Origin: a virus
Strand: one strand, 5' to 3'
DNA: 52,885 nt
Virus record (IMG/VR): IMGVR_UViG_3300016461_000001
Location: 1-52,885 of that record
In this document: in pieces, positions 1-52,885 of the stretch
Position numbering within the stretch: position 1 is the stretch's first letter
Layout: each line of letters begins with the position of its first letter
Position numbers and translations under genes: made by a program
The notes under the pieces: model-generated
Databases searched by the model: none
Told to the model about the DNA's origin: nothing
Seen by the model: the letters and a program-made list of their open reading frames with translations, nothing else

Positions 1-123
1 CGTAAACGCCTTGGCCCGGCGCGGCTGGAAGGCGCAGAAGCTCGGCGGCATCGGCGACCTCGCACACGGACATCTCCTCGGTCCGTTGAAAGCCGGCGCC
101 GAGACCATCGAGACGGCCGAAGC
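1..123. repeat. Terminal overlap copy A, identical to 52763-52885 (contig closes into a circle)
   Basis: Read directly: cgtaaacgccttggcccggcgcggctgg...gagacggccgaagc is at both window ends, 123/123 identical. It lies inside a coding frame that continues across the junction. Confidence 0.95.
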
Positions 124-18078: not shown

Positions 18079-18413
18079 TGCTGCGTCTCCGTGTTGGACG
18101 CGCGCCCGGCCTGCCGCGCGAACCGCGCGGTCTCGGCCTTCACGCCGTCGATGTGCTCGGGGTCGTAGGGGTCGGCGATCGCGGCGGCGCAGATGCGCTG
18201 CAGCTCGTAGCGGACCGCCGTGAAGGCCTCGCCGGAGGCCAGCGTGTCGCCGAGGCGGACGCTCGTGCCCTCGAAGGCGCGGACGATCTCGACGGCGAGC
18301 GCGCGATTGCCGAACGGCAGCGAGGCGAAGCGCCGGCCGGTGTCGTAGAGGCGCTGCGCGGCCTGCCGAGGCGTCACGCCCTCGACGTGCGCGGGGTGCG
18401 TGGCGGCCCTCAT
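18075..18413 (-). CDS. Hypothetical protein (112 aa)
   Basis: Track ORF, overlap-coupled. Confidence 0.55.
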   Translation of the reverse strand: MRAATHPAHVEGVTPRQAAQRLYDTGRRFASLPFGNRALAVEIVRAFEGTSVRLGDTLASGEAFTAVRYELQRICAAAIADPYDPEHIDGVKAETARFARQAGRASNTETQQ

Positions 18414-18811
18414 CGCGCACCGTCCCGGCGCTTACGCGCATGGTCGAGGACGGTCACGGACAGAGGCAGCTTGCCCGGCTGCATCTTGTGCGCGGCGACG
18501 GACAGGTCCGGCAGCATGGCCGCGATCAGGTGCGTCGCCTCGCTGGACCGGCCCTTCGCGATCAGCTCCTGGATGGCGAGCACGTCGTTCAAGGTGACGG
18601 CGAGGGCGACGCGCAGGCGTCGGTTCTCGGCGCTCGCCAGACCGATCGCCCGCTCGCGCACTGCGGCGCTGAAACCGACATGCGCCAGGGCGAGGTCGGC
18701 CTGCAGGACCGTGTAGGACGGGAGCCCGAACGAGGTCAGGGCTTCGTCCACGACCTCGACGAGGCGCTCGCGCTCGGTCGGCGTGAGAGGGGCAGCGACA
18801 GCGGGCGTCAT
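18410..18811 (-). CDS. Hypothetical protein (133 aa)
   Basis: MTPAVAAPLTPTERERLVEVVDEAL... ATGA overlap. Confidence 0.55.
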   Translation of the reverse strand: MTPAVAAPLTPTERERLVEVVDEALTSFGLPSYTVLQADLALAHVGFSAAVRERAIGLASAENRRLRVALAVTLNDVLAIQELIAKGRSSEATHLIAAMLPDLSVAAHKMQPGKLPLSVTVLDHARKRRDGAR

Positions 18812-23594: not shown

Positions 23595-23848
23595 CCTGGG
23601 TCATCGTCCAAGAAGGGCGCATCCTCTACCGCGGCTCCCGCGAGGAGTGCATGGCCGCCGCCGAGCGATTTGGCCTGCTGTTCCACGTCGGCAGCGAGCT
23701 CGATGACACCGGCGAGCCGCGCGGCGTGCTTGTCGATGGGCGCCACTGGCATCCCGATGGCACCGAGCTGCCCTGCCGGATCGCCCGCGGCACCGTGATG
23801 ATGCTGGAGCGGATGCTGCCGCGACGCCTGCGGAGGATCGCGGCGTGA
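23591..23848 (+). CDS. Hypothetical protein (85 aa)
   Basis: Track ORF with an ATGA overlap. Confidence 0.5.
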   Translation: MTWVIVQEGRILYRGSREECMAAAERFGLLFHVGSELDDTGEPRGVLVDGRHWHPDGTELPCRIARGTVMMLERMLPRRLRRIAA

Positions 23849-25809
23849 GCGACCGTGACGCCTTCTCGCCTCACATGGAGGCCGTCGCCCGGGCCATGCT
23901 CGGCGATCCGAATCCGCGCCTGACGACGCCGAACGAGCTGCGCTACGGCAGCAATGGCTCGCTGTCGATCGACCGCCACGCCGGCATCTGGTTCGACCAC
24001 GAGCGTCAGGTCGGCGGCGGTGTGCTGGATCTGCTGAAGGACAAGCAGGGCCTGCAGAACGGCTCTGCGCTGGAGTGGCTCCGCGAGCGCGGATTCCTGC
24101 CGGAGCGGGAGCAGCCGGTGCAGTCGGCCCAGACTGCCCGCGCCCGGGTCGACAAGGTCTATGACTACGTCGACGAGAACGGCGAAGTCGTCTTTCAGGT
24201 CGTACGGTTCGAGCCGAAGACCTTCCGTCAGCGTCGGCCGGCCGCTTTCGGCGAGGACACCCGCGACGGCTTCGTCTGGTCGGTAAAGGGCATCACGCTC
24301 GTTCCGTACCGCCTGATCGAGATCCAGGAAGCCATCGCGAACGGTCACGTCGTGATGATCGTCGAGGGCGAAAAGGACGCCGACGCGCTCTGGCTGCGCG
24401 GCATCCCGGCTACCTGCAACCCAATGGGTGCCGGGAAGTGGTCTCCGGACCTGGACCGGCACTTCGAGGGTGCCGACGTCGTGATCCTGCCGGACAACGA
24501 CGAGCCGGGCCGGAAGCACCGCGATCTCGTTACCGCCCGGCTGTCGTCGGTTGCCAAGCGCATCCGCAGCCTTGAACTGCCGGATCTGCCGGTGAAGGGC
24601 GACGTGTCCGACTGGTTGGATGCGGGCGGCTCGGCTGAGCAGCTCTACCACCTGATCGAGCGCGGCGCCCGGGCCCCGTGGGACGTGCCGCCGGCCTCGC
24701 GCTTTGGCGCGCTCTGGCTGGACGCTATCCCCGGCAAGGTGAGCAACACGCCTTGGATCGTGAAGGGCATCGTGCCCGGCCGTGGCTTCGGAGCCGTCAT
24801 CGGGCAGCCGGGGTGCGGGAAGTCGTTCCTGGCGCTGGACCTGGCTTTCACCGTGTCAGTGCTGGCCTTCACCGAGGGCGAGGACTCGCGCTGGTTCGGC
24901 CGCCGGGTCCGCCCGATCGGCGTCGTCTACATCGCGGCCGAGGGTCAGACGGGCTTCGTGAAGCGGGTCGAGGCGCTGCTCAAGCGCTACCGCGTCGACG
25001 ATCTCAGCCGCTTCCCCTTCGTCCTGTATCCGACGGCGCTCGACCTCCGGAACCCGGAAGGTGACACCGGACCGCTATGCGAGGAGCTGAAGGCCATCGG
25101 CGCCCGCATGCAGGAGCGCATGGGCGTCCCGCTCGGCCTGATCATCGTCGACACGCTGAACCGCGTGCTCGCCGGTGGCGACGAGAACGCGCCAGAGGAT
25201 ATGGGCGCACTGATCCGGAACTGCTCTCGGATCCAGGAGGCGACCAACGGCGCCACCGTCGTCCCGGTCCACCACATGAACGCCGCCGGCACCCGCGAGC
25301 GCGGGCACTCCTCGCTTCGTGGCGCCCTGGACTTCATGATCGAGGTCGAGCGCGGCGAGGCCGGCAATAGCTGGAAGGTCGCCAAGCAGAAGGACGAGGA
25401 GGACGGTCAGGTCTTCTCGTTCACGCTCGCGAGCCAGGTCGTCGGACTGGACGAGGACGGCGACGCGATCACCTCTTGCCTCGTCGAGGCCGTGGAGGCG
25501 CCCCGCCTCGGCCCGCAGCCCCGGCGCGCCAAGCTGCCGCCGCAGGCGCTGAACGCCTACAACATCCTGTTCCGGCACTGCGACGACAGCGGCCAGCGCC
25601 GCTACCTGCTCGGCCGGGACCGGGTCTGCATCACCCTGACTGCCTGGCAGGAGGAGTGCCGTCGACAGAACCTCGTAGCCCCGGGTGGCGGTGAAGACGC
25701 CTTCCGCAAGGCATTCGGGCGAGCCTTCGACGTGCTCCGAGCTGACCAGCGCGTCGGCGTCGAGGGGGATTACGTGTTCCCGATCCTGAAGAAGTTCGAC
25801 ACCTCCTGA
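23845..25809 (+). CDS. Bifunctional primase/helicase-like replication protein (Toprim plus RecA/AAA_25-like ATPase)
   Basis: Toprim: VMIVEGEKDADAL...ILPDNDEPGRKH. Walker A: GQPGCGKSFLALDLA. Then IIVDTLNR and VHHMNAAG. Confidence 0.8.
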   Translation: MSDRDAFSPHMEAVARAMLGDPNPRLTTPNELRYGSNGSLSIDRHAGIWFDHERQVGGGVLDLLKDKQGLQNGSALEWLRERGFLPEREQPVQSAQTARARVDKVYDYVDENGEVVFQVVRFEPKTFRQRRPAAFGEDTRDGFVWSVKGITLVPYRLIEIQEAIANGHVVMIVEGEKDADALWLRGIPATCNPMGAGKWSPDLDRHFEGADVVILPDNDEPGRKHRDLVTARLSSVAKRIRSLELPDLPVKGDVSDWLDAGGSAEQLYHLIERGARAPWDVPPASRFGALWLDAIPGKVSNTPWIVKGIVPGRGFGAVIGQPGCGKSFLALDLAFTVSVLAFTEGEDSRWFGRRVRPIGVVYIAAEGQTGFVKRVEALLKRYRVDDLSRFPFVLYPTALDLRNPEGDTGPLCEELKAIGARMQERMGVPLGLIIVDTLNRVLAGGDENAPEDMGALIRNCSRIQEATNGATVVPVHHMNAAGTRERGHSSLRGALDFMIEVERGEAGNSWKVAKQKDEEDGQVFSFTLASQVVGLDEDGDAITSCLVEAVEAPRLGPQPRRAKLPPQALNAYNILFRHCDDSGQRRYLLGRDRVCITLTAWQEECRRQNLVAPGGGEDAFRKAFGRAFDVLRADQRVGVEGDYVFPILKKFDTS

Positions 25810-33190: not shown

Positions 33191-33460
33191 ATGTCCTCCC
33201 TGTTCTCCGCCCCCAAGATCAACATGCCGGCGCCGACGGTCGCGGCCCCCACGCCGATGCCCGACACGCAGGACCCGCAGGTGCTCGCCGCGCAGAAGAA
33301 GGCGCTCGCCGAAGCGTCAGTGCGCGGTGGCCGGGCCAGCACCATCATGGGCGGCGGCGTCGGGAACAGCGCGCTCGGATCGAGCTCGAACGGCAACGCG
33401 ATCGCCGGCGGCGGCATCGGTGACAGCTACGCTAGCCGCACGCTGGGAGGCGGCCAGTGA
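33191..33460 (+). CDS. Hypothetical Gly-rich protein (89 aa) preceding portal
   Basis: MSSLFSAPKINMPAPTVAAPTPMPDTQDPQVLAAQKKAL... Confidence 0.5.
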   Translation: MSSLFSAPKINMPAPTVAAPTPMPDTQDPQVLAAQKKALAEASVRGGRASTIMGGGVGNSALGSSSNGNAIAGGGIGDSYASRTLGGGQ

Positions 33461-35178
33461 GTATCAAAGCGCGCGTCCAGGATCTGCGCGCGCAGGGCGA
33501 CGTCCTGTTCAGCCGCCGGTCCGGCATCATGTCGCTCTGGCAGGAGACGGCGGAGAATTTCCACCCGACCCGGGCCGACTTCACCCGCCACGACCCCTAC
33601 GGCTACACCGAGGGCCGCGACTTCATGGACGGGCTGATGACCGGCTCGCCCGTGCTCGCGCACCGGGAGCTGACGGATCAGCTCGCCGCCATGCTGCGCC
33701 CCAAGGGCAAGCAGTGGTTCGGCATGACGGTCGGCATCGAGCGGATCGCGCAGGACTCCACCGTCAAGGCGTGGTTCGACGACAAGGCCGGCACGATGCG
33801 CCGCGTCATGGAGGACACGCACTCGAACTTCACCCGGGCGACCAAGGAGGCGGACGGCGACTTCGTCGGCTTCGGCAACGCGGTGATGTCGGTCGAGATG
33901 AATCAGACCCGCGACGGCATCCTGTACCGGACCTGGCACCTGCGCGACTGCGCCTGGGCCGAGAACGCGGCAGGTGCCGTCGACACCATGCACCGGAAGT
34001 GGAGGCTCCCCGCCCGCTCGGTGCTGAAGATGTGGCCCGACAAGGTGGACCCGAAGCTGCGCGAGCGCGCGCAGAAGGACCCGAACAGCCTCGTCCACCT
34101 CCGGCATATCATGCTTCCGTCGGACGAGTACGACTTCGAGAACCCGCGGCCGCGCGCGACGTCCAACCGCTTCCCGTTCATCTCGATCTTCATCGACTGC
34201 GACCACGACACGATCCTGGAGGAGACCCCGCGGCGGCGCCTCCAGTACATTGTGCCGCGCTGGGTGAAGGTGTCGGGTTCGCCGATCGCGCATAGCCCGG
34301 CGGCGGTGGTCGGCCTACCGGACGCGCGTCTGCTGCAGCGCATGACGCTCACGCTCCTGGAGGCGGCCGAGAAGGCGGTGAACCCGCCGATGGTCGCGGC
34401 CGGCGACAAGATCCAGGGCGGGCTCAACGTCTACCCGGGCGGCGTGACGTGGGTCGATGCGGATTACGACGAGCGGTCCGGCGAGGCCCTGCGCATCCTC
34501 GAGGCGGCCTCGTCGAAGACCGGGATCCAGTTCGGCGTGACGATGGCCCAAGCCGCCGAGATGATGATCAAGCGGGCGTTCTACCTCGACCAGATCCGGC
34601 TCCCGCCGGCGGGCGAGGCGATGACCGCCACCGAGATCCGCACCCGCGTCGAGGAGTACATCCGCGCCGCCCTGCCGCTCTTCGAGCCGATGGAGACCGA
34701 CTACAGCGGCGCCCTGTGCGAGGAGACGTTCAACCTGTGCTGGGAGAACGGGTTGTTCGGCAACCCGGAGGCGGACATGCCGCGGCTCCTCGCCGGCCAG
34801 GACCTGCGCTGGACCTTCGAGAGCCCGCTCCAGACCGCGCAGGGCCAGCAGAAGGCGGTGACCTTCCAGCAGGCCGGGCAGCTCCTCGCGGCGGCCGTAC
34901 AGATCGACCCGATGTCCGCGGTGGAGTTCGACACCCGCAAGGCCTTCCGCGGCGCCCTCGACGGCCTCGGCGAGCCGTCTTGGATCGTGTCGGACGAGGT
35001 CGCGCAGCGCGCACGCGAGGCCGCCGCGCAGCGGCAGAGGGAGCAGCAGGACGCGCAGCATGTGGCCGACATGGCGAACGCGGGCGGCGCGGTAGCGGGC
35101 GCCGTCGGGCAGGCCCAGGCCGCCGGGCTGCTGCCGGCCCCGGCCCAGGCGAACGCGGTTGAGGGCGCGCCAGTATGA
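33457..35178 (+). CDS. Portal (head-to-tail connector, podovirus T7 gp8-like)
   Basis: 573 aa. LWQETAENFHPTRADFT...GSPVLAHRELTDQLAAMLRPKGKQWF. Positioned after terL and before scaffold and capsid. Confidence 0.8.
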   Translation: MSIKARVQDLRAQGDVLFSRRSGIMSLWQETAENFHPTRADFTRHDPYGYTEGRDFMDGLMTGSPVLAHRELTDQLAAMLRPKGKQWFGMTVGIERIAQDSTVKAWFDDKAGTMRRVMEDTHSNFTRATKEADGDFVGFGNAVMSVEMNQTRDGILYRTWHLRDCAWAENAAGAVDTMHRKWRLPARSVLKMWPDKVDPKLRERAQKDPNSLVHLRHIMLPSDEYDFENPRPRATSNRFPFISIFIDCDHDTILEETPRRRLQYIVPRWVKVSGSPIAHSPAAVVGLPDARLLQRMTLTLLEAAEKAVNPPMVAAGDKIQGGLNVYPGGVTWVDADYDERSGEALRILEAASSKTGIQFGVTMAQAAEMMIKRAFYLDQIRLPPAGEAMTATEIRTRVEEYIRAALPLFEPMETDYSGALCEETFNLCWENGLFGNPEADMPRLLAGQDLRWTFESPLQTAQGQQKAVTFQQAGQLLAAAVQIDPMSAVEFDTRKAFRGALDGLGEPSWIVSDEVAQRAREAAAQRQREQQDAQHVADMANAGGAVAGAVGQAQAAGLLPAPAQANAVEGAPV

Positions 35179-36675: not shown

Positions 36676-37503
36676 ATGGCCGACTACGCTTTTCTCACCC
36701 AGTTCAAGGACGAGTACGAGGCCGCCTTCGAGCGTCGCACCTCGGACCTGTCCCTCGTCGTCAACACCGACGTGCAGACCAAGGGCAACCAAGCGGTGTG
36801 GGACATCGTCGGGTCGAGCGGCTCGGCCGTCACCCGCGGCCTGAACGGTTTCATCCCGGCCGCGACCCCGGACGAGAACCAGGTGACCATCTTCCTCAAG
36901 GAGTGGCACGCCCTCGACCGGAAGACCGGCTACAACATCTTCGCCTCGCAGGGCGACGGCCGGAAGAAGCTGTCCGACTCGGTCGCGGCCAAGATGGCGC
37001 GCCAGGTCGACGCCGACATCACCGGCGTGCTCGCCGGCGCGGCGAACACCGGCATCGGCGGCCCGATCACCCTCGCGATGATCGAGCAGAACCTCGCCAA
37101 GCTCGGCCGCCAGGACGTGCCGATCGAGAACCCGGACGACATCGTGGTCGTGGCCTCGATCGCCGCCCGCTCCGAGCTCTACCAGATCAACCAGTTCACC
37201 TCGCACGACTGGAACGAGATCAAGCCGCTCGCGGGCCCGGTCCGGAAGCTGGCGCGCTGGGCGGGCGTGACCTGGATCTTCACGAACTCGCTCCCGGGCG
37301 CCGGCACGGCGAACGAGACGATGTTCATGTTCCACAAGGACGCGGTCGGCCACGCCGCCAACGTCCGCGAGGCCGCCGTCGAGGCGGACCGGAACGCCGA
37401 GCAGGACTACTCGTGGGCCCGTGCGACCCAGTTCATGGGCTCCACGATCCTGCAGCAGAAGGGTGTCCTGAAGTTCTCGCACGATGGCTCGGCCATCGGC
37501 TGA
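36676..37503 (+). CDS. Major capsid protein
   Basis: 275 aa in the expected position, with a long structured leader and terminator-like structures after the operon. Family not resolved by eye. Confidence 0.7.
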   Translation: MADYAFLTQFKDEYEAAFERRTSDLSLVVNTDVQTKGNQAVWDIVGSSGSAVTRGLNGFIPAATPDENQVTIFLKEWHALDRKTGYNIFASQGDGRKKLSDSVAAKMARQVDADITGVLAGAANTGIGGPITLAMIEQNLAKLGRQDVPIENPDDIVVVASIAARSELYQINQFTSHDWNEIKPLAGPVRKLARWAGVTWIFTNSLPGAGTANETMFMFHKDAVGHAANVREAAVEADRNAEQDYSWARATQFMGSTILQQKGVLKFSHDGSAIG

Positions 37504-37565: not shown

Positions 37566-37853
37566 ATGGCCTACGACAGCATCCACGGTCCGAGCATCGT
37601 CCAGCAGGACGTGACCAATTCCGCCCCGGGCGAGTTCGAGTTCTCCGGTTCCGATGCCGCCGCGGTGGTGGCCGCGAACGGCTACATCACCGACGGCGTC
37701 GCCCGGAAGATGAAGGTTGGCAGCCGCGTCCGGTACACGCAGATCAGCGTGACCCCGCCGGTCGTCACCCTGCACGAGGTGCTCACGCTGAACGCGAACG
37801 GGTCCGTCGACCTGTCCGACGGCACGGCGCTCGCCACCACCAACGCCGGCTGA
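37566..37853 (+). CDS. Small capsid-associated protein (95 aa)
   Basis: MAYDSIHGPSIVQQDVTNSAPGEFEFSGSDAAAVVAANGYITDG... GAGGAGG RBS. Confidence 0.55.
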   Translation: MAYDSIHGPSIVQQDVTNSAPGEFEFSGSDAAAVVAANGYITDGVARKMKVGSRVRYTQISVTPPVVTLHEVLTLNANGSVDLSDGTALATTNAG

Positions 37854-37908: not shown

Positions 37909-38367
37909 ATGGAGAGAACGATGCCGGTGCAGCTGCGAGAGCGGGACTTCCAGGAGATCGGGTTCGGCCAGGAGCAGCGCTCCGTCGTGGCGCCGGTCGG
38001 CACGACCATGGACGATCTGGAGAAGCCCGAGTTCTGGGCGGCGGTCTCCCGCTACCTGAAGCCCTGGGCCCGCTACAACATCCGGGCCGCGGACGGCTCC
38101 TTCTACCTTGAGATGATCGTGGTCAGCGTCGAGGCCAACAGGCCCGTGCTGCGCAAGCTCTGCGGCTTCGTCGACGAGGAGATGGTCGAGCTGAAGGACG
38201 GCCGCGACGTGATCGACGGCGTCCGGGTCGAGTTCGTCGACGAGGCCACCGGCTGGCGCGTGATCCGCGAGTCCGATCAGTACGTGATCAAGGACAAGCT
38301 GCGCGAGCGCCGCGAGGCCCGCAGGCAGCGGACGATCTACCTCGACGGTATCCGCAAGGCCGCCTGA
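37909..38367 (+). CDS. Hypothetical virion-module protein (152 aa; alternative start at 37921)
   Basis: Track ORF. GGAGAG precedes the second ATG. Confidence 0.55.
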   Translation: MERTMPVQLRERDFQEIGFGQEQRSVVAPVGTTMDDLEKPEFWAAVSRYLKPWARYNIRAADGSFYLEMIVVSVEANRPVLRKLCGFVDEEMVELKDGRDVIDGVRVEFVDEATGWRVIRESDQYVIKDKLRERREARRQRTIYLDGIRKAA

Positions 38368-38387
38368 AGCCGCCGAGGATCTGACCC

Positions 38388-40880
38388 ATGGCCGATCAGC
38401 TCGCCATCTGGAACGTCGCCCTCTCACACGTCGGCGAGCGGCGGCTTGCCTCGCTCGCGGAGCCGCGCGAGCCCGCGCGCGTGCTGGCGGACGAGTGGGA
38501 TGCGGCGGTGCGCTCCTGCCTCCAGATGACGCCGTGGAGCTTCTCAGTCCGGCGTCAGACCCTCAGCCCGACTGCGGCTGGCGGCGCGGGCTTCACACGC
38601 GCCTTTCAGAAGCCGGCAGACTGGCTGCGCACGGCCGATATCGCGACCGACGTCGCGCTGACAGCTCCGCTGGACGCCTATCTTGAAGAGGGGGCCTTCT
38701 GGTTCGCCAGCGTCGACCAGATCACGGTCCGGTATGTCTCGACGGATCCGAATTACGGCTACAACATCGCGGCTTGGCCGCAGACATTCGCCGATCTCGT
38801 TGCGCTCGCGCTTGCTGCCCGCATCTGCCGGCGCCTGACCGGCTCAGATCAGATCCTCGGCGCGGTGGTGAAGCTGCGTGACGACGCGCAGAAGGACGCG
38901 CTCGCTCTCGAGGAAGCGACGGCCGCGTTCACCTATCCGTTCGCGTCGGTCGCCGGAGAAACCCGGCTCTCCATCTACAACGCGGCGCTTGCCCATCTCG
39001 GCCGTTCCCGCGTCTACAGCCTGACCCAGACCACCGATACGCTGCGCGAGCTGAACGACCAGTGGCGCTCGGCGGTGCGGTACTGCTTGCAGCGCGGTCC
39101 CTGGCACTTCGCTTGCCGGGTCTATACCCAGACGCCCGCCAACGGCGTGTTCCCGCTGATGGATCTTGCCTATGCCTTCGAGAAGCCAGCCGACTGGATC
39201 CTGACGACGCATCTTGCAGCCGACCCTAACCTGACGGTGCCGGTCGGCCCCTACGTCGAGGATGACCGATACTGGTTCGCGAACGTCGCGCAACTCTCGA
39301 TCCGCTACGTCTCGGGGGACGCCGCATGGGGCATGGACCCGTCGCGGTGGACGCCGCGGTTCTGTGATCTCGTCGCCTTGCGGTTGGCCGAGGTCAGCTG
39401 CGGGCGCCTCGCTGCCGATGCGAAGGATCTCTGGCCGAACCTGGTCAAGCTGCGCGAGGATACCGAAAGCGCGGCCCTCTCCGTCGAGGCGGAGACAGTT
39501 GGCCGCGTCCCGCCGCCGGCGAACGGCTCCGGGATCCTTCCCCAGCTTCAGGTCTACAACGACGCGCTCGCCTATTTGGGGCTTCCCCGGGTCGACGCGC
39601 TCACTGTCGTCTCGAGCACGCTGCGGGCACTCAACGATCAGTACGACTCGGCAATCCGCCGAGCGCTTCGGCACGCGCCCTGGTTCTTCGCGGTCAGCGT
39701 CGTGACCGTGAACCCGACGCCAGGGCTCGCCGGGGGGACTCCGTTCGCCAACGGCTTCCTGAAGCCGGACGACTGGATCGCAACGCTCGATCTCGCGCAG
39801 GACCCGCAGATCACGCAGCCGCTCGACGGATACGCGGAAGAGAGCGGCCGCTGGTATGCAGACGTCCCGGTCCTGTCCGCCCGGATCATCTCCTATGGCG
39901 CTGTCTATGGCTCCGCCACGAAGCTGTGGCCGCAGGAGTTTGTCACCCTCGTCGCCCTGACGCTCGCCGAACTGTGCGCGGGCCGTGTAGGGGCGGGCGC
40001 GATGCTCCAGTCGATCACGGAGAAGCGCGCGGAGGCCGAAGCCGCGGCCGGGGCGATGGAGCTCAACACGCAGGCCAGGATCGTGCCGGCGCCATCGCCG
40101 GAGGCGGCCGTGCGGCTGGAGGTCCTGAACGGCGCCCTCACCCATCTCGGTCGGCCGCGCCTCGCCGCACTGACCGAGGCCCGAATCGACCTCCGAGCGC
40201 TGAACGAGCGCTTCAACGACTGCGTGCTCTGGTCGCTGGAACAGGGGCCGTGGACATGGGCAACCCGCACGGCGGTCGCGCAGCCGGCCGGTTACCTGCC
40301 GTTCAACGGCTTCGACAACAGCTTCATGAAGCCGGACGACTGGGTGAAGACGGTCACATTGTCGGCCTCGGGCGACTTTCTGCGCAACCCGCTGATCCAC
40401 TACATCGACGCCGACGGCATCTGGTACACGCGCACCTGCGACCTCGCCGTTCGCTACGTTTCCCAGAGCACCGACTGGGGCTTCAACCCGCTGCGGTGGA
40501 CGCCCTCCTTCCGCGGCCTGCTCGCGTTGCGGCTGGCCTGGGCGGCGTGCAAGCGCCTCGGCGGCTCGGACGCGGATCTCGGCAACATCGTGAGCCAGCA
40601 GCAGCGGGCCATGAAGGAGGCCCGCGCGAATGATGCACTGAACACCGCGCCCGTCTTCGCGCAGCCTGGCTCCTGGGTGCGCTCGCGGTCCGGCTGGGGC
40701 GGCCGGAGGCTCGACGAGTACCCGGATGGCGGCTCGATCCCGCTGCTGCCGGATGGTCTCGGCGGCGCCTCAGGACGGCTGGGCGGCTCGGTGGCCGATC
40801 TCGGCGGCGCAGACCCCGGCGATCCGGACGTCGTCGATGACCAGGGCCGGCCCGTCCACACGCCCGGCGACGGCCGGTGA
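38388..40880 (+). CDS. Four tandem gp11-like (tail tubular protein A/adaptor) domains fused in one 830-aa protein, plus a Gly/Asp-rich tail
   Basis: Unit boundaries are at nt 38388, 38964, 39543 and 40113. Each ~190-aa unit repeats N.AL.H(V/L)G, PW.F, F.KP.DW, RY(V/I)S and W(P/T)..F..L(V/L)AL.LA. Confidence 0.7.
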   Translation: MADQLAIWNVALSHVGERRLASLAEPREPARVLADEWDAAVRSCLQMTPWSFSVRRQTLSPTAAGGAGFTRAFQKPADWLRTADIATDVALTAPLDAYLEEGAFWFASVDQITVRYVSTDPNYGYNIAAWPQTFADLVALALAARICRRLTGSDQILGAVVKLRDDAQKDALALEEATAAFTYPFASVAGETRLSIYNAALAHLGRSRVYSLTQTTDTLRELNDQWRSAVRYCLQRGPWHFACRVYTQTPANGVFPLMDLAYAFEKPADWILTTHLAADPNLTVPVGPYVEDDRYWFANVAQLSIRYVSGDAAWGMDPSRWTPRFCDLVALRLAEVSCGRLAADAKDLWPNLVKLREDTESAALSVEAETVGRVPPPANGSGILPQLQVYNDALAYLGLPRVDALTVVSSTLRALNDQYDSAIRRALRHAPWFFAVSVVTVNPTPGLAGGTPFANGFLKPDDWIATLDLAQDPQITQPLDGYAEESGRWYADVPVLSARIISYGAVYGSATKLWPQEFVTLVALTLAELCAGRVGAGAMLQSITEKRAEAEAAAGAMELNTQARIVPAPSPEAAVRLEVLNGALTHLGRPRLAALTEARIDLRALNERFNDCVLWSLEQGPWTWATRTAVAQPAGYLPFNGFDNSFMKPDDWVKTVTLSASGDFLRNPLIHYIDADGIWYTRTCDLAVRYVSQSTDWGFNPLRWTPSFRGLLALRLAWAACKRLGGSDADLGNIVSQQQRAMKEARANDALNTAPVFAQPGSWVRSRSGWGGRRLDEYPDGGSIPLLPDGLGGASGRLGGSVADLGGADPGDPDVVDDQGRPVHTPGDGR

Positions 40881-40909
40881 CTCGTCTCAATCTGCGGCTG
40901 GAGAAGGCC

Positions 40910-42067
40910 ATGAAGCGCGCTCTGATCATGAAACTCGCCGTGCTCGGGGCGATCTTGTTCGCCGGGCCTGCCGCCGCGCAGACCAGCGTGCGGTGCGCCG
41001 CGTTCAACACGTTCCCCTTGGCCTTGAACCTCGGGCAGCCGCCGCTCGGCGTCGGCGGAGAGACGAACCACTGCCTCTGGCAGAAGGTCTCGGACGCGGT
41101 GAACGCCTTGGAGTTGCGCACCCGGAATGGCGGTAGCCTGACCGGCATGTTCGGCCCCGGCACGATCACCCCGCAGGGCATCTACCAAGCCTCGTACCCG
41201 GGCGTGAATTTCCGCGACACCGTGCAGTCCATGCTCGACGTGGCACCCGGCTCCCCCCAGGAGAACCTCGGCGCGTTCGCCGCCTACATGCGCAATCGTA
41301 GCGGCGGCGCGGCCACGCCGGGCGCGGGCGGCAACGCGGTCGGCTTCTTCAGCACGGGCATCATCAGCGCGGATAATTCCGCGATGTGGGGCGTGAACAC
41401 GCTCATGACGGATAACGATCAGCGTGCCGTCGCTGCCGGCGGGGCCGGGCGCATCGCGGTTGGGGCGGAGCTCGACTTCAACGTCATGCGCCCCACGACG
41501 CAGCTTATCGGCGTCTCGATCGGCGGCAACAGCCTTGCGCAGCCGACGAACGCTAACGGCTTCTTGGTCAACACGCTCGGCAACGGCAACAAATGGGGGA
41601 CCGGCTTTTGGGTCCTCGATGGCGCCGCGAAGCAGGGCCTCGTGATCGGCGCGAGCGAGGTCGCCGGGTCGAGCAAGGTCGGCATTCCGATCTGGCTCCA
41701 AGCGTTCGACAGCACTGGCACGAAGCGCACCGCGCAGATCCGCCAGGAAGACAAATACATGGTCTTCAGCGACCTATCGCAGGGATCCTGGGGCGGCATC
41801 GTCGTGCGGCAGGGCGACCTCGCGCTCGACGCCGGGCATGGCGTCATCGTGAACGGGCAGTCCGTCCTCGGCGCTCGCGTGCCCGGCTGGACGGCCGGCA
41901 CCGGCACCCCGAACCTCGGGGCTTTCAACGCGGATTACACGCAGACGATCAGCGCGACCTACACGCAGTCGCAGGTGCAGGCGCTCCAGAACCAGTTGCA
42001 GCTCACGCAGCAGCGGGTTCTCGCACTCGAGACCGCGCTGCGCACCCACGGCCTCATTGGCCCCTGA
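40910..42067 (+). CDS. Signal-peptide-bearing fibre/spike-like protein (385 aa) with a C-terminal coiled coil
   Basis: MKRALIMKLAVLGAILFAGPAAA|QT. GGAGAAGG RBS. C-terminus QVQALQNQLQLTQQRVLALETALRTHGLIGP. Confidence 0.6.
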   Translation: MKRALIMKLAVLGAILFAGPAAAQTSVRCAAFNTFPLALNLGQPPLGVGGETNHCLWQKVSDAVNALELRTRNGGSLTGMFGPGTITPQGIYQASYPGVNFRDTVQSMLDVAPGSPQENLGAFAAYMRNRSGGAATPGAGGNAVGFFSTGIISADNSAMWGVNTLMTDNDQRAVAAGGAGRIAVGAELDFNVMRPTTQLIGVSIGGNSLAQPTNANGFLVNTLGNGNKWGTGFWVLDGAAKQGLVIGASEVAGSSKVGIPIWLQAFDSTGTKRTAQIRQEDKYMVFSDLSQGSWGGIVVRQGDLALDAGHGVIVNGQSVLGARVPGWTAGTGTPNLGAFNADYTQTISATYTQSQVQALQNQLQLTQQRVLALETALRTHGLIGP

Positions 42068-42076
42068 GATCGCCCG

Positions 42077-44848
42077 ATGCCCCCCCTGACGGCACCGCTC
42101 GCCAGTTTTAACCGCGGCGAGGTCTCGCGCCTCGCACTTGGGCGCGTCGACGTCGACAAGCTCCGGCTTGCTGCGGAGGAGTGCGTGAACTGGGTCCCGC
42201 ATACCCTGGGCCCGATGCAGGTGCGCCCCGGCATGCGCTACGTCGGCGGCACCTCGCAGAACGCGCGGGCCTACACGCTGCCCTTCGTCTACTCGACGCA
42301 GGACACGGCGCTGATCGAGCTCACGCCGGGACTCCTACGCATTCTGATTGGGGACGTGCCGCTGGCGCGCCCAGCCGTCGCATCGAGCTTTGCTGCCGGC
42401 TCCATGCTTGGGGGCGGCTGGACAACGCAGACGCAGGGCAACGGCAACGTGACGATCGCGGGCGGCCAGATGGCGCTCGACGTGCCGTCGATCGGCGGCT
42501 TCGCGATCGCGGACGGGCAGATCGCCGTCGGCTCGCCAAATGTCCTGCATGCACTGCGGATCACGGTCCTGCGCGGCCCGGTCCGGTGCCGCATCGGCTC
42601 GGCACAGGGTCTGGACGATCTGGTTGGCGAGTTGAGCCTGGACGTCGGCTTCCACTCCATCGCGTTCACGCCCGGAGCCACGGCGTGGGTCGAGTTCCAG
42701 AACCGGCAGTTCGCGACCGCCCTCCTGCAGGGCGCGACGCTGGAACCGGCCGGAGAACTGAACCTGCCGACGCCGTGGTTCGACGCCGATCTCGCGCGCG
42801 TGCGCTGGGATCAGTCCGCGGACGTCGTCTTCGTAGCCTGCGCGGGGAAGGCGCCGCAGCGCATCCAGCGGCCCGCACCGAACTCCTGGTCCGTAATCCC
42901 GTTCCACGCCGATGACGGGCCGTTCATGCCCGGGACACCGCCGGCCTGCACGCTCGCCGTCTCGAACGCCCAGGGCTACGTCACCGTCTCGGCATCGCGC
43001 CCGGTGTTCCGCTCGGGCCATGCGAACAGCCTACTGCAGGTATTCACTCCGAACGCGAACGCGACCTTCGCCCTGGGCGCGGTCGGCGCCGCCATGCCTT
43101 CGGTCCGCGTGTCCGGGGTCGGTTCGGCGCGATCGATCCACTGGGAGGTCTCGGGCACCTTTGGCGGGTCGTGGGAACTTCAGCGCTCGATCACGGGCGA
43201 GGACCAGGGGTTCGCGGCCGTCTCGGCCCCGACCACGACCGTTGTCGGGACCGGGTCTGACGCCACTACGAAGACCAGCGGCGGTATCGCGGATCCGAAT
43301 TCCGTCTTCTCAGGAAGCGGCGCTGGCTCCGGCACGCTCCAGGACGATCTCGACAACGTCATCGCGTGGTATCGGATCGCCTGCACGGGCTACGCTTCCG
43401 GCGCGATCAATGCCCAGATCATCCACGGGGGCACCGGCGGCCGCACGGCGGTCCTGCGCATCATCGCCGTGGATTCCCCTACCAGCGCGCGCGCTCAGGT
43501 GCTGCGTCCGCCGTCGAGCAACAACCCGTCCGACTCCTGGCAGTTCGGCGACTGGTCCGATGCCGCGGGTTGGCCGACGGCGGTTGCCCTGTTCGATGGC
43601 CGCCTGGGCTTCACCGGCCGCGACCGCCTCTGGATGTCGGTGTCGGATGCCTTCGACAGCTTCGCGGCCGAGATCGAGGACGGCACGGGCGGCACGACCG
43701 TCGGCGACTCCTCTGCCATCTCGCGTTCGATCGGCTACGGCCCGGTCGCGACGATCAACTGGATGCTGCCGCTGACCCGGCTTCTGCTCGGCACGGCCGG
43801 CAGCGAGGTCTCGGTGCGCGCCTCCGCGCTCGACGCGCCGCTGACGCCGACCGGCGGCATGGCGATGCGGGACTGCTCGACTTATGGCTCGGCGCTTGTC
43901 CCGGCGGCGAAGTGCGACACCCGCGGTCTGTTCGTGGACAGGTCGGGGCGCCGCCTGCTGCAACTCGCCTACGACGTGAATTCGCAGGACTACGGCGCGA
44001 CGGACCTGACGCGCCTCCACCCGGATCTGAATCTTGGCAACCCGATCATCCGTCTCGCCGTCCAGCGGCAGCCGAACACGCGCATCCACTGCGTGCGGGC
44101 AGACGGTACGGTGGCCGTGCTGGTGTTCGAGCCGAACGACGACGTCGCAGCTTGGTACCGGATTGAGACCGACGGCTTGGTCGAGGACGTCTACGTGCTG
44201 CCCGGGCTGATCGAGGATGCGGTCTATTACACCGTGAACCGGGGCGGCACGCGCTGCCGGGAGCGGACGGCCCGCCTTGACCAAGCCCGCGGCGGCAACC
44301 TCAACCTGATGGCTGACGCTTTCGTGAGCTACTCGGGCAACGTCCCGACGTCCGGCGTGTCCGGGCTCGACCATCTTGAGGGGAAGACGGTCACGGTCTG
44401 GGCGGACGGAATCGACCGCGGCGTGGCGACCGTCACGAACGGCGCGGTCGGCCTCGCGACGCCCGCCATGAGCGTGTGCGTAGGGTTGCCCTACGTGGCG
44501 CGATGGCGATCGGCAAAGCTGGCCTATGGCGCGCCACAGGGCGGCACGGCATTGAACCGGCGCAAGCGGCTCATCGGCCTGGGCCTGATCCTGGCCGACA
44601 CGCACGAGCAGGGGCTGTTCTTCGGGCAGAGCTACGGCGCGCTCGACCCGCTGCCGCTGGTTGAGGACGACGGCTTGATCGATCCTGCGGGCGGCCAGAC
44701 TGCCTTCGACGAGCAAGAGATCGAGCTGCCCGGGCAGTGGGACACCGATGCGCGCCTCTGCCTCTACGGGCAGGCGCCGCGGCCCTGCACGGTCATGGCG
44801 GCGAGCCTTACGATGGAGACGAGCGTCCTCGGGGGGCAGCAGCAGTGA
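42077..44848 (+). CDS. Tail tubular protein B/nozzle-like protein (923 aa)
   Basis: Size and position follow the gp11-like gene. The N-terminus FNRGEVSRLALGRVDVDKLRLAAEECVNWVPHTLGPMQVRPG parallels the gp12-type N-terminal pattern (by eye). Confidence 0.5.
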   Translation: MPPLTAPLASFNRGEVSRLALGRVDVDKLRLAAEECVNWVPHTLGPMQVRPGMRYVGGTSQNARAYTLPFVYSTQDTALIELTPGLLRILIGDVPLARPAVASSFAAGSMLGGGWTTQTQGNGNVTIAGGQMALDVPSIGGFAIADGQIAVGSPNVLHALRITVLRGPVRCRIGSAQGLDDLVGELSLDVGFHSIAFTPGATAWVEFQNRQFATALLQGATLEPAGELNLPTPWFDADLARVRWDQSADVVFVACAGKAPQRIQRPAPNSWSVIPFHADDGPFMPGTPPACTLAVSNAQGYVTVSASRPVFRSGHANSLLQVFTPNANATFALGAVGAAMPSVRVSGVGSARSIHWEVSGTFGGSWELQRSITGEDQGFAAVSAPTTTVVGTGSDATTKTSGGIADPNSVFSGSGAGSGTLQDDLDNVIAWYRIACTGYASGAINAQIIHGGTGGRTAVLRIIAVDSPTSARAQVLRPPSSNNPSDSWQFGDWSDAAGWPTAVALFDGRLGFTGRDRLWMSVSDAFDSFAAEIEDGTGGTTVGDSSAISRSIGYGPVATINWMLPLTRLLLGTAGSEVSVRASALDAPLTPTGGMAMRDCSTYGSALVPAAKCDTRGLFVDRSGRRLLQLAYDVNSQDYGATDLTRLHPDLNLGNPIIRLAVQRQPNTRIHCVRADGTVAVLVFEPNDDVAAWYRIETDGLVEDVYVLPGLIEDAVYYTVNRGGTRCRERTARLDQARGGNLNLMADAFVSYSGNVPTSGVSGLDHLEGKTVTVWADGIDRGVATVTNGAVGLATPAMSVCVGLPYVARWRSAKLAYGAPQGGTALNRRKRLIGLGLILADTHEQGLFFGQSYGALDPLPLVEDDGLIDPAGGQTAFDEQEIELPGQWDTDARLCLYGQAPRPCTVMAASLTMETSVLGGQQQ

Positions 44849-45201
44849 TCGCTCTGGCGCCCGCCACCGCCGCGGACTTCGAGGCCGTGTTTGGCGTCGC
44901 GCCGCCGTGGCGCATCCGCGGCGTGGCGGCGCGCGAGGATGGCCGGCCGGTGGCGCTGTGCGGCCTGGCCTACACGCCCGACGGGCAGGCGATGGCGTTC
45001 TACGCCGGCACCGAGGCGGTGCAGCGTTTCCCCGTGGCGATCACCCGGGCGGTGATCGCCGGCCTGGCCCAGGCCCGCGGCCGGGGCGTCCGGCGGATCG
45101 TGGCCGAATGCGACACCTCGATCGAGGCCGCCGCGCGCTGGCTCGCGCGGCTCGGCTTCCGCGAGACCGAAGTGCCGAACGTGTGGATCTGGGAGGCCTG
45201 A
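44845..45201 (+). CDS. Small GNAT-like acetyltransferase-fold protein (118 aa)
   Basis: GTGA overlap start. ...RGRGVRRIVAECDTSIEAAARWLARLGFRE resembles the GNAT motif A/B region. Confidence 0.45.
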   Translation: MIALAPATAADFEAVFGVAPPWRIRGVAAREDGRPVALCGLAYTPDGQAMAFYAGTEAVQRFPVAITRAVIAGLAQARGRGVRRIVAECDTSIEAAARWLARLGFRETEVPNVWIWEA

Positions 45202-51000: not shown

Positions 51001-52885
51001 GCCATGCCCTGGAGAAGCGGATCGGCGAGCCGCTGTCCGACCTGATCGACCGGCACGCCGCGGAGCTTGGCCCGCTGGACTATGACCCGCAGCGCGGCGA
51101 CGCGGGCGAGGGCTTCGCCGAGTGGGTGCGCACGGCCATGTTCAACCCGGCGGCCGGGCAGCGGCAGGCGCCCGGGTTTGCGCAGGCCTTCCGGGCGCTG
51201 ATGCAGCGGGAGGCGCCGGATCTGCTGGAGCGCCTCGACCAGGCCGTGGCCGCCCATCAGGCCTACCTCGCCGCGCCGACGGGCGAGAAGCTCGCGACCA
51301 TGGTGCGCAAGCCCGAGGACGAGGGTGTGATTCAGTCCATTCGCCGGGACGGCCTACCGGCGACGGTCGGCCTGTACCTGTCCCGGGCCTACGAGGCGGT
51401 GTTCGACGACAAGGCGCCCGTGGCCCGGGCCGTCCGATCCATGACGCGGGCGATCTACGCCGCGACTGGCGAGCGGGTCCGGCTGGAGGGTGGCGAGAAC
51501 CCCGAGAACCTCGTGCGCCTGTTCGCCCGGGCCAACCAGGCGGCGGTGCAGGACATGCGCGAGGGCGTGCGGCCCTACCATGGCATCGCGCCGGAGGGCC
51601 CGTCGATGTCCGACGCGCTGGCGACCGCCACCGGTCAGCCCGGGATCCTCGGCCGCTGGGACGCCGGCAAGGTCGAGGAGTTCGACCGCTACCTCGTCGC
51701 CCGGCGCGCGGAGGTGCTCTACCGCCGCGTCGCCGACGGCACGCTGGAGCGACGGCCGATCGCGCTGTCGCCGGAGGAGGTGCGGACCGCGGTCGCCGAG
51801 GCCGAGGCCGCGAACCCGACCTTCCGGGCTGGGGCCGACCAGATCCACCAGTTCACCCGGCAGCTCCTGCGCAAGCAGTACGAGGGCGGGCTGATCGACG
51901 CCGACCTGTACGCGCGCCTGATGGACGAGGAGTTCTATGTGCCCCTGTACCGGCACATGGATGAGCGCCCCGAAGGTCTCGGCGGCGGATCCGGTGGCTC
52001 GGACGGGCCGGGCACGGTCGACACCATCAAGCGCCTGCGCGGCTCGGACCGCGACGTGATCCCGCCGACGCAGAGCCTGATGACCCAGGCCTTCCTCGTG
52101 AACCGGACGCTCCAGCACAACGACATCATCAAGAGCTTCGTCGCCCTGGCACGGGCGGCGCGCGAGGCCGGCGCCGCCGGCGTGGGCCGGATCCTGGAGG
52201 AGATCCCGCCGACGCAGATGCTCGGCAAGCGCTTCGATCTCGCGGAGGCGGTGCAGAGCGCGGCGCGCGCGGCGGGCACGTCCGGCGACGATCTCGCGGT
52301 GCTGAACGGAGCGATCACCGACGTGTTCGGCGAGGACCCGATCATGGCGACGATCTTCCGGGCCGAGCCCACGGGCAAGCGCGGCGAGCCGATCGTCTTC
52401 TACAAGGACGGCGGGCAGCTCCGCGCGGTTCGCCTCCAGGCCCGAGACGAGGGGCTCGCCCTCTACGAGACCCTGTCCGCGCTGCCGCCGATGGCCCGGG
52501 ACTTCGCGCTGAAGTTCGGCGCCACGACGTCGAGCCTGCTGCGGACCGGCATCGTCACGAACCCCACCTTCGCGATCACGAACTTCTTCCGCGATCAGCT
52601 CGCGGTCGGCGTGCTCCGGTCCGACTATGTGCCCTTCGTTTCCGGCGCAAAGGGCATCCGGAGCGAATGGAATCAGGATCAGTGGGCGCAACGCTACGCC
52701 TACGGCGGCGGTGTCTCGCCCGGCGCTGGCTCGGCTGGTCTGTCGGAGTTGATCGACCGCGACGTAAACGCCTTGGCCCGGCGCGGCTGGAAGGCGCAGA
52801 AGCTCGGCGGCATCGGCGACCTCGCACACGGACATCTCCTCGGTCCGTTGAAAGCCGGCGCCGAGACCATCGAGACGGCCGAAGC
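48045..52885 (+). CDS. Giant virion-internal/ejection (polyvalent-like) protein, N-terminal part; no stop before the window end, continues at base 2 (2179 aa in total once the overlap is collapsed)
   Basis: ATG at 48045, 14 nt after the SLT gene. I translated the frame by hand to 52885 with no stop. The track lists no plus-strand ORF in this frame, as expected for an ORF that runs off the end. Confidence 0.8.
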   Translation, partial: MADSAAPASLQDDGPNPFADRLAADPSLGEVSLAERARLNAVEAAYRGTIAGSADLAEFKRALPDQYERITKDLARYETMRGFDGPLEGAVALAGQLGGGMTSPEALITRVPGVNSLVERRVGGVAGRVLGAAGAQAAVQGAANPAIQASEIQSGLRKNYSLGENLAAAAGGAVLGGALHGAGEAVGALARSGRAAKVDTDALARARIAEQQAAESRNMAALAAEDPALRPGGEQGDIGQPISEPAARPDAGRTEAGIPVTEQDQALSPRADLQKAPSNMQADMQAAPEAPAMDAPAVAADPEAAAARAAADVPREEPAAPAMEQRPAVMDESAVPAETPAAPEEGYRLQISPFEKSTETRKNFDIVKDGESIGTAVVDVKGKEAYFDNIYLHGLDFGVDPVGTIGLREVRKMARQFLAEHPEIESITGNRVSGARKTIRGGAETQITVRRPKPQEAPTPEAAGAQPNPEATTPATLAAAVNTSSSGKPLSLSQFIARNGGLALDGEARARDLNRVFVPGGGPLARAKGHSIDGFWREAMIEHGYLPPDADGMAARNIEKELFDALDREQRGQRQYSAQDRAPETGGADNQTREIEAQARKITAAAKKVGIRPGDVDQRTMMDAAEMLWRGDADDPLVALEHAMMSGEAPRGRQMEQSVDGLQFMKRPQPSMLARLAAALDKEAALRPERDRLGGLLRDARAERDPIADLEAALARNLDRPATAEQSPEALLADIEARIADAKAEAVTPAQDDAITALERALSENLKADAPTRGDPAAALERALAEVPAPSRAVERPTALEARVLRAIEATPDGKGLGKDIWDVRERLPGMSEPDFVRAMHGLQAKRLTNLSQYSDPRSVRGQQGIDVGAGDRHIVSVQPEGRAALSGRDDLRFRNREPAAAGGEPGRPAPPDAVAGAAAPADTPAAEPLRSLQQQAQDLADALDVPLRSGRVKGGKDALGQFRNSDEVMRVRNVADFETVAHAAGHALEKRIGEPLSDLIDRHAAELGPLDYDPQRGDAGEGFAEWVRTAMFNPAAGQRQAPGFAQAFRALMQREAPDLLERLDQAVAAHQAYLAAPTGEKLATMVRKPEDEGVIQSIRRDGLPATVGLYLSRAYEAVFDDKAPVARAVRSMTRAIYAATGERVRLEGGENPENLVRLFARANQAAVQDMREGVRPYHGIAPEGPSMSDALATATGQPGILGRWDAGKVEEFDRYLVARRAEVLYRRVADGTLERRPIALSPEEVRTAVAEAEAANPTFRAGADQIHQFTRQLLRKQYEGGLIDADLYARLMDEEFYVPLYRHMDERPEGLGGGSGGSDGPGTVDTIKRLRGSDRDVIPPTQSLMTQAFLVNRTLQHNDIIKSFVALARAAREAGAAGVGRILEEIPPTQMLGKRFDLAEAVQSAARAAGTSGDDLAVLNGAITDVFGEDPIMATIFRAEPTGKRGEPIVFYKDGGQLRAVRLQARDEGLALYETLSALPPMARDFALKFGATTSSLLRTGIVTNPTFAITNFFRDQLAVGVLRSDYVPFVSGAKGIRSEWNQDQWAQRYAYGGGVSPGAGSAGLSELIDRDVNALARRGWKAQKLGGIGDLAHGHLLGPLKAGAETIETAE
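52763..52885. repeat. Terminal overlap copy B, identical to 1-123
   Basis: Same as copy A. Confidence 0.95.

Follow-up and report, generated by a model that had tools for sequence, protein, structure and literature searches.

A tandem array of four predicted head-to-tail adaptor domains encoded by one gene of a T7-like podovirus

Introduction

In phage T7 the adaptor gp11 contacts the gp12 nozzle through its alpha1-alpha2 loop and grips the portal clip and stem with the end of alpha4 and a C-terminal embracing helix that encircles the stem of the portal (PMC6702177). In the T7-like podoviruses A4 and PhiXacm4-11 it is the C-terminal tail of the adaptor that inserts between portal subunits (PMC12002296; bioRxiv 10.64898/2026.02.16.706137). 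Outside the crassviruses, podovirus adaptors have been observed only as one ring of one small protein (PMC10172136). Here we describe a gene in IMG/VR virus record IMGVR_UViG_3300016461_000001, of which positions 1 to 52,885 (the window, the whole 52,885 nucleotide stretch that was analysed) contain a single 830 amino acid (aa) open reading frame (ORF) made up of four consecutive adaptor units. Judged by its sequence, this ORF is the phage's only head-to-tail adaptor and is a polar tandem array of four adaptor domains.

The closest one-domain relatives to be compared are T7 gp11, the connector of Cobetia phage Carin-1 (8CK1 chain E) and orf17 of Legionella phage LME-1 (9EFK), all of which have the four-helix bundle and beta-sandwich fold of the window units. 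Sequence homology to the window units is detectable for the Carin-1 and LME-1 adaptors. The Carin-1 connector also has the C-terminal GSW..R.G hook in common with the window protein, and its gene neighbourhood is like that of the window, with a PF12236 portal and a Carin-1-type nozzle. Whereas one-domain adaptors are ~180-230 aa long, the window protein has four diverged domains fused in 830 aa, keeps the canonical loop in the first unit only and the hook after the last unit only, and continues past the hook for a further 50-60 aa as a Gly/Asp extension that is predicted to be disordered.

A tail assembled from several adaptor-like rings is known in crAss001, in which the tail barrel consists of five stacked dodecameric rings of paralogous adaptor-like proteins, 23 nm in all. 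Rings R1-R5 are formed by four proteins (gp43, gp40, gp35 and gp34) with three helices and a beta-sandwich, the ring beside the 6-fold muzzle adapts the symmetry through N-terminal residues 15-26, and the number of ring genes differs among crassviruses (PMC10172136). As in the window, there are several diverged adaptor-like paralogues whose number varies between related viruses. However, the crAss001 rings are separate genes with 15-31% identity and their stacking was seen by cryo-electron microscopy, whereas the window has a single uninterrupted ORF for which stacking would be a prediction, and its virion module is T7/Carin-1-like, unlike that of crAss001. A second comparison is with the T5 tail tube protein pb6, in which a duplicated tube domain gives trimeric rings (PMC8718954). 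Here too a ring-forming tail domain has been duplicated in tandem and fused, although pb6 has another fold and a fixed two-domain architecture, unlike the polar chain and the 2-16 units of the window family. Polarity and variable unit number therefore fit poorly with equivalent in-ring positions of the pb6 type.

No description of tandem or fused adaptors was found in the literature searched, in agreement with an earlier note on this DNA, made from the sequence alone, whose author knew of no described example. What appears to be new is the fused, polar and copy-number-variable adaptor array; the unit family and the crassvirus multi-ring barrels made from separate genes are known.

Results and Discussion

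Four adaptor units in one open reading frame

A hidden Markov model (HMM) of the unit finds four full-length copies in the 830 aa protein (aa 4-191, 193-382, 386-574 and 576-760). The unit boundaries listed in Table 1 are all in frame (aa 1, 193, 386 and 576), and the units measure 192, 193, 190 and ~185 aa and are followed by a tail of 70 aa with 18 Gly and 10 Asp residues. In blastp comparisons the units are 35-45% identical to one another, with E values of 1e-23 to 2e-45 that are far above chance; when codon-aligned, their amino acid identity is 34-42%, and 37 columns are invariant across all four. Nucleotide identity in the codon alignment is only 50-56% (38-50% at third positions), and the duplication is therefore old and not an artefact of assembly, a possibility also ruled out by the recurrence of the architecture on many independent contigs. 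The earlier note had claimed four consecutive units of low DNA identity arising from an old duplication, and all of this stands. Its Gly/Asp-rich tail has the composition described but is 70 and not 75 aa in length, and among its recurring landmark motifs AL.H reads AL.Y in unit 3.

The 830 aa protein matches no Pfam family at E <= 1. However, PHROG 394 ('tail protein', a 190-position profile) matches it four times (E 7e-95), and a phmmer search of PDB sequences finds the Carin-1 'Connector Protein' (8ck1_E, 222 aa; E 2.6e-7). A family profile made from 64 single-unit relatives and the last unit of the window aligns with 8ck1_E over its full length (E 7e-18) and also matches the dodecameric LME-1 adaptor orf17 (9efk_T, E 5e-9). 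AlphaFold2, supplied with an alignment of eight 4-unit proteins, predicts the 830 aa protein with a mean predicted local distance difference test score (pLDDT) of 80.9 and a predicted template-modelling score (pTM) of 0.53, the tail being disordered. Each unit is predicted as helix-helix-six strands-helix-helix at a pLDDT of ~85-93, which matches a helical bundle alpha1-alpha4 with a beta-sandwich dock between alpha2 and alpha3.

When the AlphaFold2 model is compared with the PDB using Foldseek, the top matches are all podovirus adaptors, with template-modelling (TM) scores of 0.75 for Carin-1 (8ck1_E), 0.71 for LME-1 (9efk) and 0.61 for T7 gp11 (7box_M, E 2.8e-5). Further matches are to PhiM1, E1004, HRP29, Kp9, P-SCSP1u and KP32 tail tubular protein A, and there are weak matches to the crAss001 chains 7qog_B (E 2e-3) and 7qoj_D (E 4e-2). 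T7 gp11 is reached by fold comparison only and not by sequence. Each unit has the adaptor fold and the repeats are real; the structural comparison proposed in the earlier note thus bears out its assignment of the units to gp11-type adaptor domains. Proteins of the multi-unit class are all annotated as 'hypothetical', and their assignment as adaptors corrects that annotation.

The first and last 123 bases of the window (1-123 and 52763-52885) are identical, showing that this is a complete circular genome of ~52.76 kb. A six-frame scan of the whole genome with the unit HMM found no second adaptor homologue, and related loci likewise have one adaptor gene only. As the sole adaptor homologue in a complete genome, the 830 aa protein must link the portal to the nozzle. 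Its gene is part of a T7-like structural module with no other of its kind and lies after the capsid gene and before the nozzle gene. The earlier note had placed it exactly between the capsid genes and a nozzle-size ORF; the order is correct, but ORFs of 95 and 152 aa intervene on the capsid side and one of 396 aa on the nozzle side.

Polarity of the chain

Scoring each unit against a profile of one-unit adaptors reveals an asymmetry between the ends of the chain. At profile positions 11-30, which cover the end of alpha1 and the alpha1-alpha2 loop, units 1-4 score 44, 8, -2 and 18 bits, and in the C-terminal tail (DAMN.PP.F.P.GSW..R.G) they score -18, -11, -17 and 54 bits; total scores are 241 bits for unit 1, 97 for unit 3 and 232 for unit 4. 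In 57 multi-unit proteins with long units the loop region scores +22 bits in first units, -3 in middle units and -2 in last units, with corresponding values of -18, -20 and +33 bits for the C-terminal tail, and 38 multi-unit proteins with short units have the same pattern. The hook motif PVFAQPGSWVRSRSG, which is predicted to bind the portal, is present once, after unit 4, and is absent after units 1-3. It aligns with the C-terminus of the Carin-1 connector, LPYASWTRANIG, and also ends one-unit and multi-unit members of the family among those listed. By the net charge of their channel-lining helix alpha4, first, middle and last units cannot be told apart from single-unit adaptors. Because these profile scores coincide with elements whose contacts have been published, each chain appears to be of nozzle type at its N-terminal end and of portal type at its C-terminal end.

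The arrangement that we favour, with a probability of about 0.5, has twelve chains with the last unit on the portal and the first on the nozzle, the units forming stacked dodecameric rings and the number of repeats setting the length of the neck; the twelve chains per virion, the axial stacking and the effect on tail length are what we infer here. The twelve chains would assemble on the portal, where the last unit with its single C-terminal hook would engage the clip and stem in the manner of a one-domain adaptor. As the sole keeper of the canonical alpha1-alpha2 loop, the first unit would engage the hexameric nozzle, and units 2 and 3 would be placed between the portal-bound and nozzle-bound units. 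Four units in each of twelve chains would give four stacked dodecameric rings, a fused-gene version of the crAss001 multi-ring tail barrel in which the neck would lengthen by one ring height per added unit. By analogy, the neck would be ~14 nm longer with four units than with a one-ring adaptor, and with 16 units a tube of ~70 nm would result.

The same asymmetry makes it very improbable that the ORF encodes a polyprotein that is cleaved at its linkers into four adaptor monomers of ~190 aa for assembly into an ordinary dodecamer. The resulting monomers would not be equivalent, as the portal hook would be missing from units 1-3 and the canonical nozzle loop from units 2-4, even though each unit has about the size of a normal adaptor and an (A/S)R.(Y/F)P-like motif recurs in the linkers. 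Moreover, no protease family was matched among the head-module ORFs scanned, and the number of units varies freely among relatives. To our knowledge, T7-like phages do not use a maturation protease.

One hook per chain suits twelve chains, and would also suit an arrangement in which each of twelve chains contributes one terminal unit to a canonical ring and extends the others outwards as arms or a collar, docking fibres or the capsid or decorating the surface. In the absence of the portal T7 gp11 is a monomer, and it has weak ring contacts (PMC6702177), so additional units need not form rings, and the adaptor beta-sandwich is a dock for fibre or capsid (PMC6702177, PMC12002296); a putative hypervariable fibre-like cassette directly follows the adaptor gene. 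However, with the canonical nozzle loop on the first unit and the hook after the last, no single unit would make both canonical contacts, and in the short-unit subtype the last unit lacks both alpha1 and the loop. In the window and its 11 closest relatives unit 1 is followed by a short, conserved linker that contains Pro, and this, together with pTM values of 0.53-0.60 in AlphaFold2, suggests a defined geometry between units and not flexible tethers. The fibre-like cassette is also absent beside the adaptor at the 16-unit locus (L004). Outward arms are thus a possible but unlikely fate for the additional units.

Relatives and unit number

A word-indexed search identifies relatives with 3, 4, 5 and 6 units at 46-63% identity, two of which are in Methylobacterium chromosomes; with the unit profile as query it returns three proteins. 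An exhaustive profile search of representatives identifies 5205 family proteins, and units were counted in the 163 that score best. One unit is present in 68 of these, two in 16, three in 27, four in 28, five in 10, six in 5, seven in 1, eight in 6, and 11 and 16 in one each (three of the counted proteins have 7-9 units in the search's own count), such that 95 of the 163 are multi-unit proteins. The survey for one-, two- and four-unit versions proposed in the earlier note thus recovers them all, within a full range of 1-16. In nearly all of the counted proteins the first unit starts at residue ~4-5, and the majority finish ~15-70 aa past the last unit; close relatives of the window protein also end in a Gly-rich extension, but one that differs from that of the window. 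There are two subtypes: a long-unit subtype, to which the window belongs, with 2-6 units of ~195 aa and alpha1 in every unit, and a short-unit subtype with 3-16 units of ~150-165 aa and alpha1 in the first unit only.

Adaptors with 1, 3, 4, 5, 6 and 16 units share one syntenic slot, 3' of the capsid gene and 5' of the nozzle gene. These include a complete 5-unit gene in a locus of the close group and a 207 aa one-unit homologue in Burkholderia phage vB_E332. Portal identity is 92% between the window and a 3-unit phage (L003) and 81% between the window and a 6-unit phage (L001); the corresponding values are 98% and 94% for the capsid protein and 69-78% and 72% for the nozzle. With portals and capsids near-identical across 3-, 4- and 6-unit phages, unit number evidently changes quickly on a near-constant virion background. 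The first units of 12 relatives cluster and are 48-64% identical to window unit 1 (56-64% without P0005), and the last units of close relatives also cluster together. A counterpart of unit 2 is absent from the 3-unit protein P0003 but is present twice in the 6-unit protein P0002, and the middle unit of P0003 shares 62% identity with unit 3 of the window protein. On these comparisons the first and last units are, to judge from their clustering, positionally orthologous, and the middle units have apparently been gained and lost.

A few multi-unit proteins of uncultured viruses are also present, uncharacterised, in UniProt/BFVD (A0A516M5L4, 1139 aa; A0A516L4P3, 583 aa; A0A6J5LSM0, 512 aa). Like the Methylobacterium prophage proteins P0005 and P0011 they have the tandem adaptor architecture of the window protein, and none has been annotated or studied, which shows the class to be widespread yet undescribed. 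One candidate for a known 4-unit protein, phrog_9239 (a 741 aa 'tail tubular protein'), was rejected, as it is really one adaptor unit with immunoglobulin-like domains (Vibrio phage VP2, BFVD Q6RCF4). We note that the fusion of an adaptor unit to immunoglobulin-like domains in the VP2/VP5/phiVC8 group represents a second, different route to a larger adaptor.

Unit number bears directly on the assembly proposed in the earlier note, in which one pseudo-12-fold ring is closed by three laterally arranged 4-unit chains, a single protein thereby reducing the symmetry to 3-fold or 6-fold. The arithmetic is attractive (4 x 3 = 12), T5 pb6 is a precedent for fused ring neighbours (PMC8718954), the 8-12 residue linkers join ends on the same side of the unit in the T7 topology, which favours lateral neighbours (PMC6702177), and 2, 3, 4 and 6 units are said to be the commonest multi-unit classes. 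However, a pb6-type rule that units times chains equals 12 holds for the four units of the window and fails across the family, in which complete proteins have 5, ~7-9, 11 and 16 units, numbers that do not divide 12. The complete 5-unit gene at the syntenic locus is one of these, and the distribution has no dip at five units relative to six (10 and 5 proteins, respectively). The same portal and nozzle pair is found with 3, 4 and 6 units, yet a 3-unit chain would put its one canonical loop at non-equivalent positions on the 6-fold nozzle. Similarly, with one hook and one canonical loop per chain, a trimer would offer three hooks to 12 portal clefts and three canonical loops to the nozzle. In the short-unit subtype, internal units would have to take their places in the ring without alpha1. 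The relatives with 5, 7-9, 11 and 16 units, the occurrence of 3, 4 and 6 units on near-identical heads and portals, and the polarity of the chain thus do not support a trimer of tetra-domain chains, and we consider it improbable.

The range of 1 to 16 copies in relatives suggests a longer neck of stacked copies and not one ring shared by all of them. With stacking, the unit number (3-6 in close relatives and up to 16 in distant ones) would act as an evolvable, built-in ruler of tail length. A more general form of this proposal, in which an extended tail tube is made from one polypeptide as 12 parallel chains in N stacked rings, the number of repeats (2 to 16) setting the length without a tape-measure protein and unit gain or loss allowing fast retuning, has in our estimation slightly less than an even chance of being correct.

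Several observations weigh against stacking. In the AlphaFold2 model the linkers between units are short, with 8-12 residues from alpha4 to the next alpha1, and because both ends of the linker are on the portal side in the T7 topology, stacking needs either nested rings or frayed helix ends. On this modelling, short linkers would reach lateral neighbours more easily than stacked ones; linkers of 8-12 residues are compatible with lateral and nested-stack arrangements alike. The continuity of alpha4 into the next alpha2 that was expected in the short-unit subtype, and that would make stacking obligatory, is not seen, and in the AlphaFold2 prediction for the short-unit protein P0015 there is a low-confidence linker of ~11 residues. 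The nozzle-contact role of the alpha1-alpha2 loop is taken by analogy from T7 and not from a Carin-1-type structure. Finally, when 50,697 deposited phage genomes were searched by tblastn, using the window protein and two multi-unit relatives as queries, no homologue with more than one unit was found; the only matches in deposited genomes are single-unit relatives with ~23-30% identity, in Burkholderia phage vB_E332 and, with a single-unit relative as query, in the Vibrio VP2/VP5 group.

Tandem-array adaptors with 2-16 units, as a widespread class, would represent a new means of constructing a short tail and setting its size. Were the units to stack, neck length would be set by the number of repeats, which would link the gain and loss of units to a dimension of the virion that is probably important for passage through capsules or thick envelopes. 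Stacking is made testable by the close relatives with 3, 4, 5 and 6 units on nearly the same head, portal and nozzle, and four-unit versions are also present as prophages in cultured Methylobacterium strains.

Genome organization and neighbouring genes

The genome is that of a temperate T7-like podovirus that carries an integrase, an ERF recombinase and an ISL3 transposase (Table 1); the temperate lifestyle is indicated by the integrase and ERF-family recombinase together with an AAA_25 protein. The structural module has the order large terminase, portal, 338 aa ORF, capsid, 95 aa ORF, 152 aa ORF, adaptor, 396 aa ORF, nozzle, GNAT-like ORF and internal virion proteins. An ORF of ~2200 aa with an LPD38 domain occupies the position of a gp16-like internal virion protein and spans the junction of the circular genome (from ~48033 to the end, then 1 to 1822), as a result of which it is missed in ORF listings of the linear window.

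Table 1. Coordinates of the adaptor gene, its component units and other features of the window.
Feature	Coordinates	Strand	Evidence or remarks
ISL3-family transposase	6135-7514	-	DDE_Tnp_ISL3, E 8e-53; inside the phage genome
Tyrosine integrase	9179-10441	+	
ERF-family recombinase	17323-18438	-	
AAA_25 protein	23845-25806	+	
Portal, T7/Carin-1 type	33457-35178	+	PF12236, E 2.4e-66; 8ck0_A, E 2.3e-26
338 aa ORF at scaffold position			Between portal and capsid; phrog_3742
Major capsid protein	36676-37503	+	PF19821, phrog_3437
95 aa ORF	37566-37853	+	Between capsid gene and adaptor
152 aa ORF	37909-38367	+	Between capsid gene and adaptor; phrog_26742
Shine-Dalgarno sequence GAGGA	38375-38379	+	8 nucleotides 5' of ATG; read directly from the sequence
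830 aa tandem adaptor ORF	38388-40880	+	ATG start; identical to database protein P0001 ('hypothetical protein, uncultured Variovorax sp.')
Unit 1 (aa 1-192), proposed nozzle-proximal	38388-38963	+	Keeps canonical alpha1 helix and alpha1-alpha2 loop GERRLASLAEPREPAR; pLDDT ~90
Unit 2 (aa 193-385), internal	38964-39542	+	Degenerate loop, no hook; unit HMM, AlphaFold2, profile scores
Unit 3 (aa 386-575), internal	39543-40112	+	Most diverged from single-unit adaptors (total 97 bits)
Unit 4 (aa 576-760), last, proposed portal-proximal	40113-40667	+	Unit HMM, AlphaFold2, clustering, profile scores
C-terminal hook motif	40620-40697	+	...NDALNTAPVFAQPGSWVRSRSG; once per chain; 54 bits against tail region of single-unit profile
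Gly/Asp-rich extension, predicted disordered	40698-40877	+	pLDDT <50 for residues 750-830
396 aa fibre- or needle-like protein	40877-42067	+	phrog_1219, phrog_32740
923 aa tail nozzle	42077-44848	+	phrog_376, E 2e-133; Carin-1 Tail Nozzle 8ck1_A, E 9e-33
Small GNAT-acetyltransferase-like ORF	44737-45201	+	Between nozzle and internal virion proteins; also matches 'internal virion protein' PHROG

The 95 and 152 aa ORFs upstream of the adaptor gene could encode proteins for decoration, head closure or the neck with which the enlarged adaptor interacts. The 152 aa ORF is 80% identical to its counterpart in L001, and ORFs of similar size are present at both positions in all related loci.

Downstream, the TGA stop of the adaptor ORF overlaps the GTG start of the 396 aa ORF in the sequence GTGA. 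This position is occupied by different genes in related phages, with ORFs of 610 aa in L001 (13569-15401), 515 aa in L003 (11854-13401), and 357 and 635 aa in two further loci (L007 12586-13659 and L006 4802-6709, respectively). The 396 aa ORF has no detectable similarity to its 515 and 610 aa counterparts, which share only one weak 34 aa match with each other, and from these comparisons the gene after the adaptor can be described as a hypervariable, putatively fibre-like cassette. Both the window ORF and the L001 copy begin with a hydrophobic segment resembling a signal peptide, which is odd for a tail fibre, and the C-terminus of the window ORF matches a 'tail needle' PHROG.

At the position of the GNAT-like ORF, Burkholderia phage vB_E332 has an ORF annotated as an acetyltransferase (L005 8920-9345), and in related contigs this position is occupied by ORFs of 118-130 aa. 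In a related Methylobacterium-type phage contig (L007) a gene of the Acb3 family (PF25187; 3454-4344) lies beside the terminase, a position at which the window has no called equivalent.

The contig carries the NCBI label 'uncultured Variovorax sp.', but this host assignment may be wrong, because the only named relatives of the adaptor sit in Methylobacterium chromosomes. An ISL3 transposase gene is also present in the related phage contig L001 (1-159).

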